Sequence record: MT611523.1
Origin: Escherichia phage DK-13
DNA length: 64,000 nt
Direction: 5' to 3' (one strand)
The notes under the pieces are model-generated. The model saw only the letters and a program-made list of their open reading frames with translations, was not told the origin of the DNA and ran no database searches. The position numbers and the translations under genes are program-made. Below, one piece after another: positions 30,869-52,028 of the stretch; position 1 is the first letter of the stretch, and every line of letters begins with the position of its first letter.

Positions 30869-31615
30869 ATGATTTTATCCGGAAGAACTGTTGATGAACT
30901 CAATGAAAAAGTCCAGGCTGCCTTGGCTGATAATTGGTATTTGTTTGGTTCTACTATGGTGTTGCCGAATACCCCTACAGATAGCAAAGAGCGTTTTTTC
31001 CAAACTATGTCCAGCTCGGAAACTCAGATACCGGGTCCGCCTGGTCCCAAAGGAGAACCGGGTGTACCCGGACCAAAAGGAGACCCAGGTGGGGATGGAA
31101 AATCTTCTTATCAGATATGGCTTGACTTGGGAAATACAGGAACTGTTGATGATTTTTTAACTGATACAGCAGGAAAGAGGGAAAAATCCGAGGTGTTTTG
31201 GAGTGGTATAAACGTTCTATTAACTAATGGTACGACTTCAAACATAATTAGTGTTTTAAAGGGGATTCCACCGACTGCAGGGACTCTATCTCCGTTTTTT
31301 AGAACCACTGATGATAAGTTGTGGCCATATAACCAAGACAGAAGCCTAATGTTTAAACTCAACCTTATTGGTAATTTTGCAGGAGCCTCGCAAGCTCGAA
31401 GTATAACATTAAATTTCGTTGGAACCAACGGAAACACTTATATACAGAATCGTCCGGAAAATGCTACAGATATTTTGTCTTTTACAACGTTCTTTAGCAT
31501 TGATAAAGATGGGGCAATGGCAACCAATGGTACAGCTATAACTGTTATGCCAAATGGCGGCAACTTTACAATAACCTCCGCATTGTTAGTAGCCGAACAA
31601 ACAGTGACTTCATAA
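30869..31615 (+). CDS. Collagen-like repeat fibre protein (Gly-X-Y repeats plus globular C-terminal domain)
   Basis: 248 aa; GPPGPKGEPGVPGPKGDPGGDG followed by SSYQIWLDLGNTGTVDDFL (post-collagen fibre motif); strong RBS AAGGAGAAAGTTT-ATG; only plus-strand gene in a 59 kb minus-strand block. Confidence 0.7.
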   Translation: MILSGRTVDELNEKVQAALADNWYLFGSTMVLPNTPTDSKERFFQTMSSSETQIPGPPGPKGEPGVPGPKGDPGGDGKSSYQIWLDLGNTGTVDDFLTDTAGKREKSEVFWSGINVLLTNGTTSNIISVLKGIPPTAGTLSPFFRTTDDKLWPYNQDRSLMFKLNLIGNFAGASQARSITLNFVGTNGNTYIQNRPENATDILSFTTFFSIDKDGAMATNGTAITVMPNGGNFTITSALLVAEQTVTS

Positions 31616-31640
31616 ACAAAAAAGGGCCATCCGGCCCTTA
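31615..31640 (-). terminator. Hairpin terminator at convergent gene ends
   Basis: AGGGCC-ATCC-GGCCCT stem-loop; U-run follows on the minus strand; lies directly 3' of the plus-strand collagen-like gene stop as well. Confidence 0.55.
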
Positions 31641-31880
31641 GATTGCACTCCAAAAATTATGGAATCTTATAGTATTGATAGCCCAGTTAACAAACCTGCG
31701 AGTTTGTTTGGGAGTTGGTTTGCATATGTACTTATTGTTGATTCGTCTGCCAGTTTCCCGACAGACTGCTTCGAGATACCAGCGCCGACCTTTATTAGGT
31801 CTTCCGTATGATAAGAAGACCTTCATTTCTTCATTAACGATAATAGGAATTGTGGTTGTCAAGGTATACCTCTTCAACAA
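31638..31880 (-). CDS. Hypothetical basic protein
   Basis: 80 aa ORF; overlaps the 3' end of the NTase gene. Confidence 0.4.
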   Translation of the reverse strand: MLKRYTLTTTIPIIVNEEMKVFLSYGRPNKGRRWYLEAVCRETGRRINNKYICKPTPKQTRRFVNWAINTIRFHNFWSAI

Positions 31881-32844
31881 ACTTGTCCCAGAACTTCATG
31901 TCTACCTTATCAGGCATACCATTCTTAGCAGCCTGGATGGCCAGAACTTCAACTAAATCGACAGTATCTTCAAGAAGTTCTTGAACTTCTTTAAATGGTA
32001 ATTCACCAGCTTTAATCAGCTTAATGATAGAGGCTTCACGCAATGGGAATACCAAGTCACCTGTTTGGTAGATTTCCATCAATTGATACCCTGCACGATA
32101 AGCATGGCTCAGTGCTTTCCAATCAATACCTTCGTTAGCTTCTGCTTTACGAGCACGTTCACCATATTCGGCGTCGAGTTTATTCAGAGATTGCTTGAGC
32201 TCGATTAATGACAGAGTAGTTTGGTATTTACGACCGAGGACAGTATAGAACGTTTGAGGACCTGTTTTCTCATGGTTATGAAATACCCATTCGCAGAACT
32301 CGTTTTCAGGGAGTCTGTGTTTGATATCTTCTACCTTAGTACGTCGTTGCTTAGCGGAACCATCTTCTTGATAGTCAACCCATTGTTCAGGAATCTGGTT
32401 AACAATTTCCAATACACCACGCAGTGCAGCCAATCGAGAACCTTTAACACCATATTTGGAAGCTTGCTTACGGACGTACCCCAAATAGGCTTTCATGTTA
32501 GTTGTATAGAACCGTGAACGGTTGTCCTGAATAAACTTCCATACATCTGGTAAATCGGATTTGACTACCAGGTCAGCCGGGGTGTGAATCATATCCAGAG
32601 CAACGGTTTCGCCATCGGCCGCCAGTTTAAAGAAATATTTCAGACTATAAAGTTCATGGTCAACATCATCTTTTGTATTTTTGGTGGCCGTGTTATTCGT
32701 GTTCAGGTTGGTATGGTTCATCGCCGTCCCAAGTAGAATATCACGAGGATGCGGAACAAAGATTTCTTTAAAATCGACATCAGATTCTGGGGTACTTGTT
32801 CCATAAAGGTGGCTACCGAAGTAGCCTTTCATAACTGTTCTCAT
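31834..32844 (-). CDS. Predicted nucleotidyltransferase (Pol-beta superfamily)
   Basis: GSHLYGTSTPESDVDF matches the G[SG]-x9-13-DxD NTase signature with a downstream acidic residue (VALDMIH); start taken at MRTVMKGYFG, overlapping the upstream stop as ATGA. Confidence 0.55.
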   Translation of the reverse strand: MRTVMKGYFGSHLYGTSTPESDVDFKEIFVPHPRDILLGTAMNHTNLNTNNTATKNTKDDVDHELYSLKYFFKLAADGETVALDMIHTPADLVVKSDLPDVWKFIQDNRSRFYTTNMKAYLGYVRKQASKYGVKGSRLAALRGVLEIVNQIPEQWVDYQEDGSAKQRRTKVEDIKHRLPENEFCEWVFHNHEKTGPQTFYTVLGRKYQTTLSLIELKQSLNKLDAEYGERARKAEANEGIDWKALSHAYRAGYQLMEIYQTGDLVFPLREASIIKLIKAGELPFKEVQELLEDTVDLVEVLAIQAAKNGMPDKVDMKFWDKFVEEVYLDNHNSYYR

Positions 32845-33293
32845 TTTTTGTCCTCGAAGTGGATTACAGGACACATCTTAGATTTACGAGCTTTAATGTA
32901 TTGAATAACGATGTTTTCTTTAGTTTCCTTTCCTTCACGTTTGGCTAGAATACGTTGCCATTCCTTTTCTTCTTTACGTAAATCATACCATGCGTGTAAA
33001 TTCATCGCACCTAATGCCAAACCAATGGATAGTGCAATAATAAGAGCTATTGCAACCAACCCTAAAACAAACCCTAGACTCAACAGAACAGGAGTACTTA
33101 ATACAAAGAAATTCTCTAATACACCAACGCCTGCAACAGTTAATCCGAAAAGCGTACCACCTGCAACAACAGCACAAGCAAAACAAGCCCAAACCATTTT
33201 CCAGAAATAAGCACATAGAGAGTGCGGTCGAGAATGACTGTCATAAAAACGGTCATGTAATTTAACGTGCCAAGAGTTTGCATTGATAATCAT
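32841..33293 (-). CDS. Membrane protein
   Basis: 150 aa; two to three hydrophobic helices, basic C-terminus. Confidence 0.5.
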   Translation of the reverse strand: MIINANSWHVKLHDRFYDSHSRPHSLCAYFWKMVWACFACAVVAGGTLFGLTVAGVGVLENFFVLSTPVLLSLGFVLGLVAIALIIALSIGLALGAMNLHAWYDLRKEEKEWQRILAKREGKETKENIVIQYIKARKSKMCPVIHFEDKK

Positions 33294-33303
33294 AATATTT
33301 TCC

Positions 33304-33864
33304 TTAAGAGTTCATAGTTGGGATAACAGAGTTCAGATAAGAGACTAAAACTTTTAGCTCGTCCTTAGTAAATACCACTTCATTAAAACCATCGTGTACT
33401 TGGGTAATACATAGTTGGTCACGACCGCCATGTTGAACAACAGCCAGTTCAGTATTATAATTCAATTCTTCTTCGTCGCCATCAAAGGTTTCACTGGAGC
33501 GAATCAGCGCATCTTGACCTGGTACTTTCCATTCAACTTCTGGCTTGCATTCTTCCTGGAAGAGTTTGAAAATACAATCAAAGAATTTATCAGAATCGCT
33601 AATGCTTAAGCATTCTGTATCGGTTTCAATATTAAACCCATCTTCATTTTTATAAACTTTGACCCATAAATCATAATTGATATCAAACGATGCACTATGA
33701 CGTCCACCAAGATAATCCTGTTTATCTAAAACCTTTAAATCATAAAGCGGTTTAATATCTTGGATAGTCAGTACGATTTTATCGTCTTCTTGACAAAGTT
33801 CAATTGCATTATTAACTACTTCAGCGGTCAGTTCGCCAAACAATTCAGTTGTTTCAATAATCAT
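33304..33864 (-). CDS. Hypothetical acidic protein
   Basis: 186 aa ORF. Confidence 0.5.
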   Translation of the reverse strand: MIIETTELFGELTAEVVNNAIELCQEDDKIVLTIQDIKPLYDLKVLDKQDYLGGRHSASFDINYDLWVKVYKNEDGFNIETDTECLSISDSDKFFDCIFKLFQEECKPEVEWKVPGQDALIRSSETFDGDEEELNYNTELAVVQHGGRDQLCITQVHDGFNEVVFTKDELKVLVSYLNSVIPTMNS

Positions 33865-35132: not shown

Positions 35133-35160
35133 GAAAAAAGGTCCACCCGAAGGCAGACCT
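35133..35160 (-). terminator. Rho-independent terminator
   Basis: GGTC...GACC hairpin followed on the minus strand by TTTTTT, just 3' of the gene ending at 35167. Confidence 0.5.
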
Positions 35161-35166
35161 TTTGAA

Positions 35167-51875: not shown

Positions 51876-51952
51876 TGGTCGGGGTGGTGGGATTCTAACC
51901 CACAACCTACGGTTTAGAAGACCGTTGCTCTATACAATTGAGCTACACCCCG
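51876..51952 (-). tRNA. tRNA-Arg (anticodon TCT)
   Basis: Hand-folded cloverleaf: acceptor CGGGGTG/CACCCCG, D stem GCTC/GAGC, anticodon stem ACGGT/ACCGT with loop CTTCTAA, T stem GTGGG/CCCAC, encoded CCA. Confidence 0.85.
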
Positions 51953-52028
51953 GGTGGCCCCATCCGGACTTGAACCGGAAACCTGCCAGTTATGAGCCGG
52001 ATGCTCTAACCAATTGAGCTACAGGGCC
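51953..52028 (-). tRNA. tRNA-Ile2-like (anticodon CAT; AUA-decoding after lysidine modification, or Met)
   Basis: Hand-folded cloverleaf: acceptor GGCCCTG/TGGGGCC, anticodon loop CTCATAA, T arm TCCGG-TTCAAGT-CCGGA; overall resembles E. coli tRNA-Ile2; abuts tRNA-Arg. Confidence 0.8.

Follow-up and report, generated by a model that had tools for sequence, protein, structure and literature searches.

The repair of PrrC-cut host tRNA(Lys) by Pnkp and Rnl1 of phage T4 is the textbook case of a virus mending RNA damage inflicted by its host. The RlaP nucleotidyltransferases, reportedly named by Burroughs and Aravind for their linkage to RNA ligase genes, have been placed in the same field. Here we describe the nrdC.11 orthologue of Escherichia phage DK-13 (sequence record MT611523.1), a minus-strand gene within an analysed stretch of 64,000 nucleotides (the window) whose product almost certainly belongs to the RlaP family of DNA polymerase beta (Pol-beta) type enzymes, and for which the rebuilding of broken tRNA ends is, taken as a whole, a reasonably probable explanation. 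According to a prediction in a later survey by the Aravind group, nucleotides taken away by RloC and similar nucleases would be put back by RlaP ahead of ligation (PMC7824862). RloC excises the wobble nucleotide, and its discoverers argued that this could defeat repair by T4 Pnkp and Rnl1 (PMC2610378). Whether a phage can answer nucleases of this kind has been a question since 2008, and NrdC.11 is the obvious candidate.

Two bacterial RlaP enzymes, from Pseudomonas fluorescens (PfRlaP) and Pseudomonas aeruginosa (PaRlaP), were characterised in a bioRxiv preprint of 30 December 2025 (PMC12776372). Both label Escherichia coli RNA and leave DNA and protein unlabelled; they act only on ends with a 3'-OH, extending them by one or two nucleoside monophosphates or deoxynucleoside monophosphates, accept any nucleoside triphosphate (NTP) and prefer Mn2+ (PMC12776372). 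With a nicked-tRNA mimic RlaP prefers the 3' end of the 5' half, and it partly restores aminoacylation of a tRNA(Asp) that lacks one anticodon-loop nucleotide (PMC12776372). In the similarity network of the same study T4 NrdC.11 falls within the RlaP family, in cluster 5, and the assayed enzymes fall in cluster 1a (PMC12776372). The gene and its family are therefore already described, as are the role predicted for it and the biochemistry of related bacterial enzymes, and the window holds no new kind of element.

Family membership, active site and fold

The gene and the parts of its product are, with the basis of each in brackets:

31834–32844, minus strand: NrdC.11 orthologue, coding sequence of an RlaP-family (PF10127) Pol-beta nucleotidyltransferase of 336 amino acids (open reading frame (ORF), profiles, identity to T4)
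32770–32817, minus strand: nucleotidyltransferase signature GSHLYGTSTPESDVDF, residues 10–25, with G10-S11 and then D22-x-D24 (translation)
32593–32667, minus strand: segment DVDHELYSLKYFFKLAADGETVALD with the candidate third catalytic carboxylate (translation; D62 on predicted beta strand 61–67)
32149–32445, minus strand: clade-specific insert of about 95 residues (about 134–232) relative to the Pfam RlaP model (gap between Pfam matches)
31837–32208, minus strand: C-terminal helical domain, residues about 213–336 (carries DWKALSHAYR)
32095–32124, minus strand: DWKALSHAYR, the most conserved motif of the family (H247 and R250 invariant)

The protein is 100% identical to the deposited Escherichia phage DK-13 protein and, over all 336 amino acids, 81.8% identical to phage T4 NrdC.11 (RefSeq NC_000866.4), which RefSeq annotates as 'nucleotidyltransferase'. 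Against the Pfam model PF10127 ('RlaP, RNA repair pathway DNA polymerase beta family') it scores 47.6 bits (cut-off 23; E = 2.3e-12), within the 36–56 bits of five cellular members of its clade. PHROG 388 ('nucleotidyltransferase') is matched over residues 1–335 with E = 3.8e-132, which places the protein in the orthologous group of T4 NrdC.11. An exhaustive, profile-free search for relatives returned 3,243 cluster representatives at E <= 0.001, and conservation was read from an alignment of 150 representatives that are 34–82% identical to the query. G10, G15, S21, D22, D24, Y131, H247, R250 and P267 are invariant in all 150 sequences, and S11 is kept in 148. Further along, D60 is conserved in 145 sequences, position 62 is aspartate in 142 and glutamate in seven, and position 84 is aspartate in 142 and glutamate in four; for all three alike the count of acidic residues (D or E) is given as at least 146 of 150. 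The alignment thus contains the combination by which RlaP proteins are recognised, namely hG[GS], DxD and a third conserved aspartate. The carboxylate that completes the triad is most likely D62, which the structural model puts on strand 61–67.

This model, predicted with AlphaFold2 (AF2) from the 150-sequence alignment, has a predicted local distance difference test score (pLDDT) of 94.4 and a predicted template modelling score (pTM) of 0.84. Its top Foldseek matches are almost all Pol-beta nucleotidyltransferases, none of them at E <= 0.001, with HalB in first place, and a structure search of BFVD matched other phage 'nucleotidyltransferases'. Searches of PDB chains by sequence, run with the single protein as well as with the 150-sequence profile, returned nothing relevant from a PDB copy that lacks the PfRlaP structure; HalB was not matched.

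The initial annotation of this DNA had called the interval a Pol-beta-superfamily nucleotidyltransferase from the motif GSHLYGTSTPESDVDF and a later acidic residue, and had named loss of the acidic triad in a careful alignment, or a predicted fold outside the superfamily, as grounds for abandoning the call. Neither was found: the acidic residues are kept in the 150-sequence alignment, D60, D62 and D84 among them, and AF2 with Foldseek and BFVD leads back to nucleotidyltransferases. The quoted motif is encoded within the gene and is not a chance match, given the PF10127 score, PHROG 388 and the invariant residues. The gene is likewise real, with a GAGGA ribosome-binding site and a ratio of nonsynonymous to synonymous substitution rates (dN/dS) against its relatives of 0.04–0.08, and its protein is therefore under strong purifying selection. 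Together, these sequence comparisons establish that the Pol-beta active site of this RlaP-family protein is intact, conserved and under selection.

In the AF2 model, residues 1 to about 95 make up the catalytic alpha/beta core, with strand 2–9, the GS helix, strand 23–30 with D22-x-D24 at its start, and strand 61–67 with D62. An alpha/beta N-terminal domain is followed by a helical C-terminal domain that ends in a long helix (316–335). PF10127 aligns best with residues 8–133 (model positions 25–141) and weakly with residues 233–294 (positions 139–199; 12.7 bits alone), and the roughly 95 residues between the aligned parts therefore form an insert relative to the family model. This insert is present in all 150 representatives, with 66–109 residues between R137 and Y227, and is modelled as two helices, five short strands (residues 154–208) and the start of a long helix. 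The helical domain of roughly 250 residues that had been described downstream of the motif is therefore right as to the helices but is not plainly helical, since a beta-rich module precedes the helical bundle. Besides DWKALSHAYR, the C-terminal domain carries several conserved basic residues; such conservation is as expected for a cleft that would bind an NTP and nucleic acid.

The fold suits other activities too. NrdC.11 might be a signalling or anti-signalling nucleotidyltransferase that makes short oligonucleotides (oligo-dA, for instance) or depletes nucleotide pools and thereby disturbs a host defence, for example by mimicking HalB and so keeping the Hailong HalA channel closed, and HalB is indeed the first structural match. 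That match, however, covers the generic nucleotidyltransferase core only (144 residues, 13% identity), and no sequence relation to HalB or to any other PDB chain emerged even with the profile. The best PADLOC match, PDC-S09 (E = 0.0039, 15.5 bits), spans residues 9–25, a motif of 17 residues, and places the protein in no defence family. Bacterial RlaP does not extend DNA and stops after one or two additions (PMC12776372), and the neighbours of the clade are RNA-repair genes. We regard a role in signalling as very improbable. The same holds for nucleotidylation of a protein or small molecule that would neutralise a host factor, as carried out by MNT/MntA antitoxins on HEPN toxins or by aminoglycoside nucleotidyltransferases, the latter being among the closest solved folds. 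The NCBIfam model of MntA, NF047752, scores 15.5 bits against a cut-off of 60 on an 18-residue motif only, and it is the RlaP model that is passed instead; bacterial RlaPs do not label E. coli proteins (PMC12776372); no HEPN toxin gene is adjacent; and the 336 amino acids compare with about 100–140 in a minimal MntA/MNT. To this activity, too, we give very little credence.

Linkage to RNA-repair genes and the proposed role

Because the characterised enzymes are distant from the NrdC.11 orthologue, the genomic linkage of its own clade was examined, using one genome per prokaryotic species and 80 loci with full-length relatives of 33–51% identity, in which neighbouring ORFs were clustered, identified with Pfam and counted by tblastn. 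An RNA-repair gene lies within about 5.5 kb of the nucleotidyltransferase in 17 of the 80 bacterial or archaeal loci (RtcB in nine, Hen1 in seven, the bacterial Pnkp kinase-phosphatase-ligase in six, T4-type Pnkp in four, an Rnl1-type ligase in two and Ro60/TROVE in two). At least one repair gene is on the strand of the nucleotidyltransferase in 16 of the 17, and several abut it, with gaps of -24 to +6 nt. The 17 loci are a lower bound, because flanks of 3 kb or more on each side were available for only 48 of the 80, and we estimate the chance expectation at well under 1% per locus, each of these genes typically occurring about once per genome of thousands of genes. The association with RNA-repair genes that characterises RlaP is thus found at the level of the clade, not locally. 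Neighbour clustering had also yielded 18 apparent extra nucleotidyltransferase paralogues beside the cellular genes; these were dropped, as tblastn place by place found no locus with two copies, and they are therefore split or overlapping ORFs of one gene.

In two loci (L009, 80–3731, and L083, 1135–3999) the nucleotidyltransferase gene is clustered compactly, on one strand, with those for a T4-type Pnkp and an Rnl1-type ligase; by gene content these clusters are a complete T4 repair kit plus an NrdC.11-type enzyme, and a self-contained repair module of three enzymes could well be taken from them. The first is assigned to a Bathyarchaeota metagenome-assembled genome (MAG) and the second to an unclassified bacterial MAG; at 4–6 kb both contigs are short, and they may be of viral origin. 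Two further loci (L010, 100–2538, and L034, 1672–9143) have Ro60/TROVE genes immediately upstream of the nucleotidyltransferase or close to it, and in L034 the enzyme is flanked by Ro60 and RtcB upstream and by Hen1 downstream, all on the same strand. Such arrangements suggest larger composite RNA-repair islands that include the NrdC.11 clade.

By analogy with the Pseudomonas enzymes, it is likely that phage NrdC.11 adds nucleotides to RNA 3' ends. In the mechanism we propose, D22, D24 and one further carboxylate, for which D62 is the most likely residue, would hold two divalent metals, probably Mn2+, which would activate the 3'-OH of a broken RNA for attack on an NTP, so that one or two untemplated nucleotides would be added. 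The cleft for NTP and RNA would be lined by basic and aromatic residues that are conserved in the helical domain, among them K243, H247, R250 and K278. The substrates would be the 5' halves of tRNAs whose anticodon loop has been cut and then trimmed by RloC-type host anticodon nucleases; with the missing nucleotide or nucleotides put back, phage Pnkp and RNA ligase 1 could reseal a functional tRNA. RlaP would leave a 3'-OH, the end required by the 5'-phosphate ligase Rnl1 once Pnkp has healed the break. On whether tRNA repair directed specifically against RloC is the role of NrdC.11 we are close to evenly divided. Among the options raised in the initial annotation, modification of tRNA or RNA ends is the one retained; its statement that the substrate cannot be told from sequence has given way, since the protein falls in a named family whose bacterial members act on RNA 3'-OH ends (PMC12776372), and the earlier reading can, with support, be sharpened to 'RlaP-family RNA 3'-end nucleotidyltransferase'.

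The breadth of the bacterial enzymes also leaves room for other RNA ends. NrdC.11 could repair or remodel the 3' CCA or acceptor ends of tRNAs of host or phage after damage by exonucleases or toxins, or tail the 3' ends of mRNA or small RNAs and so alter their stability. Bacterial RlaPs label many E. coli RNAs, including rRNA-sized and full-length tRNA bands, with any NTP (PMC12776372), T4-like phages carry tRNAs of their own (two tRNA genes lie in the window), and in this phage nrdC.11 is not physically linked to the ligase or kinase. In the nicked-tRNA mimic, however, the internal break, at the 3' end of the 5' half, is preferred over the acceptor end, and the genomic partners of the clade serve to seal breaks (RtcB, Pnkp, Rnl1, Hen1) and are not genes for CCA addition or the degradosome. 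We therefore consider such targets unlikely. All three alternatives fit the fold; they agree less well than the rebuilding of broken tRNA ends with the family to which the protein is assigned, with the substrate tests in the literature and with the neighbouring genes.

Several observations weigh against this rebuilding role. The preprint calls T4 NrdC.11 'of unknown function', addition to RNA 3'-OH ends is known for PfRlaP and PaRlaP alone, and untemplated addition would restore the correct nucleotide in a fraction of the molecules only, as its authors acknowledge (PMC12776372); the study is moreover a preprint without peer review (PMC12776372). The NrdC.11 clade belongs to cluster 5 and not to cluster 1a, and has, in its insert of about 95 residues, a part that the Pfam model lacks; its specificity may therefore not be that of the assayed enzymes. 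As to linkage, 63 of the 80 cellular loci have no RNA-repair neighbour, and an RtcB, Rnl1 or Pnkp-like gene lies within 6 kb in only four of 80 viral loci, all outside the T4-like group. Pnkp, Rnl1, RtcB, Hen1 and Ro60 were sought in the 64-kb window and none was found, and in T4-like phages nrdC.11 is not adjacent to pseT or rnlA. In T4, nrdC.11–mobD.3 is a deletable block (PMC9825161), and the T4 record OL964745.1 (159,752 bp) keeps only residues of about 302–336 of nrdC.11 (the last 35 or so codons); the gene is therefore non-essential on laboratory hosts.

The closest RefSeq relative, vB_EcoM_RZ (RZ), does carry genes for Pnkp (76% identical to that of T4) and RNA ligase 1, which lie some 85 kb away from its nrdC.11. 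Per host genus, almost equal numbers of phage records have NrdC.11 and Pnkp (Klebsiella 286/286, Shigella 83/83, Enterobacter 56/56); we give this no weight as evidence, both genes being simply common in T4-like phages.

The insert invites a more speculative proposal, which we think has a small chance of being correct: it may be a tRNA-recognition module that confers selectivity for certain broken anticodon loops or for the nucleotide restored. If so, an untemplated tailing enzyme would become a dedicated counter-measure to wobble-excising nucleases such as RloC, and NrdC.11 would fill the place of a missing third enzyme in the classical T4 pathway of tRNA repair. Still less likely is a variant outside repair, in which short oligonucleotides would be made to blunt a defence of the HalB/HalA type.

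Gene neighbourhood, distribution and annotation

The source is a T4-like, Gaprivervirus-type phage, with nrdC.11 in the syntenic nrdC–tk region. Bp7 (Dhakavirus) and RZ (Gaprivervirus) share the order nrdC ... nrdC.x ... nrdC.11 – membrane protein – mobD.1 ... rI – tk – vs – regB, in agreement with the earlier placement in the nrdC–tk hyperplastic region. The elements around the gene are:

32851–32855, minus strand: GAGGA ribosome-binding site, 6 nt upstream of the nrdC.11 ATG (direct sequence reading)
32841–33293, minus strand: upstream gene for a membrane protein of 150 amino acids, PHROG 944, translationally coupled (same position in Bp7 and RZ)
31638–31826, minus strand: small downstream gene for a basic 62-amino-acid protein, DUF7279, same apparent transcription unit (PF23945, PHROG 8921)
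31622–31639, minus strand: terminator-like hairpin GGGCCGGATGGCCC followed by a T run, which would close the leftward unit (consensus match only)

The gene runs from an ATG at 32844–32842 to a TAA stop at 31836–31834. A GTG at 32874, given as the start in the mechanical ORF list, was set aside; the ATG is the better start because of the GAGGA at 32855–32851 and the overlap with the TGA of the upstream gene (ATGA), and the same start, MRTVMKGY/MKTVMK, is found in all nrdC.11 orthologues. The ATG overlaps the TGA stop (32843–32841) of the membrane-protein gene, an arrangement typical of translational coupling. Two genes upstream of the nucleotidyltransferase, in the same apparent leftward unit, lies a MobD.1/y05I-like gene (33304–33864, minus strand; Pfam T4_y05I_N and T4_y05I_C), described as a 'putative transcription factor'. 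Hairpins at 35136–35163 and 31622–31639 flank the unit and are a weak indication of its limits, the second lying between it and a convergent plus-strand gene; a scan of the sequence for promoters and terminators gave counts no higher than in shuffled sequence. GC content is 0.37–0.43 throughout the region, which is unremarkable for the window.

The ORF of 62 amino acids, directly after the nucleotidyltransferase gene and before the hairpin, scores 32.4 bits on PF23945 (DUF7279; cut-off 24.5) and matches PHROG 8921 with E = 5.6e-34; the RefSeq record of RZ has no coding sequence annotated at its place. The convergent gene (30869–31615, plus strand) encodes 248 amino acids and stands in place of T4/Bp7 nrdC.10. 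Its product has a collagen-like Gly-X-Y stretch (GPPGPKGEPGVPGPKGDPGGDG) followed by a tail-needle-knob domain of the Sf6 type (PF16532, E = 2.6e-32; PHROG 1030). It has a strong AAGGAG ribosome-binding site, and no exact TATAAATA late promoter was found upstream of it; a knob protein of structural type is odd within a region of early accessory genes. Elsewhere in the window, two adjacent genes, tRNA-Arg(TCT) and tRNA-Met(CAT), are the only tRNA genes found (51876–52028, minus strand).

By tblastn, nrdC.11 is present in 1,515 of 50,697 phage records, nearly all from T4-like phages whose hosts are enterobacteria, Klebsiella, Aeromonas, Acinetobacter or Vibrio; in many T4-like coliphages the gene matches the present one at 90–98% DNA identity. 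In GenBank and UniRef, many entries name the orthologous protein 'thioredoxin', apparently by way of the gene name nrdC.11, and single records read 'HNH homing endonuclease' or 'ArsR family regulator'. These are annotation errors, because a Pfam search of the protein gave no thioredoxin match, and records named 'thioredoxin' should read 'RlaP-family nucleotidyltransferase'.

Comparison with known systems

The closest counterpart is T4 NrdC.11 itself, which has the same place between mobD.1-like and membrane-protein genes and the nrdC.x genes and belongs to the same Pfam and PHROG families. In T4 and Bp7, however, the next gene downstream is nrdC.10 (P-loop NTPase-like), which is absent from the window, where the DUF7279 gene and the convergent collagen-like/tail-needle-knob gene replace it. 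An obligate partnership of nrdC.10 with NrdC.11 was rejected, as nrdC.10 is missing both here and in RZ.

Among solved structures, the folds of HalB (PDB 9dbh/9dbj) and of kanamycin nucleotidyltransferase/ANT(4') (1kny, 6nlt) come closest, with a helical domain after the Pol-beta core. The DxD of HalB (D21/D23) lies, like D22/D24 of the NrdC.11 orthologue, near the N-terminus. Identity to these enzymes is 10–15%, however, with no match at the sequence level; their substrates differ (oligo-dA synthesis and aminoglycoside modification), and neither shares the RNA-repair gene context.

The Pseudomonas RlaPs are of the same Pfam family as NrdC.11 and appear to share its plan of an N-terminal nucleotidyltransferase domain and a C-terminal helical domain, with conserved aspartates (three of them strictly conserved according to the paper describing the enzymes). 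In cellular genomes the NrdC.11 clade, too, shows linkage to RtcB and other genes of RNA repair. In the PfRlaP crystal structure the last helix packs back on the nucleotidyltransferase domain. NrdC.11 differs in being encoded by phages and, in T4-likes, in lying outside any operon with a ligase. The pathway that it is proposed to extend is that of T4 Pnkp/PseT and Rnl1 against the anticodon nuclease PrrC; this classical pathway differs in that it heals and seals a clean break, for which no nucleotide addition is needed, whereas NrdC.11 would act where nucleotides have been removed.

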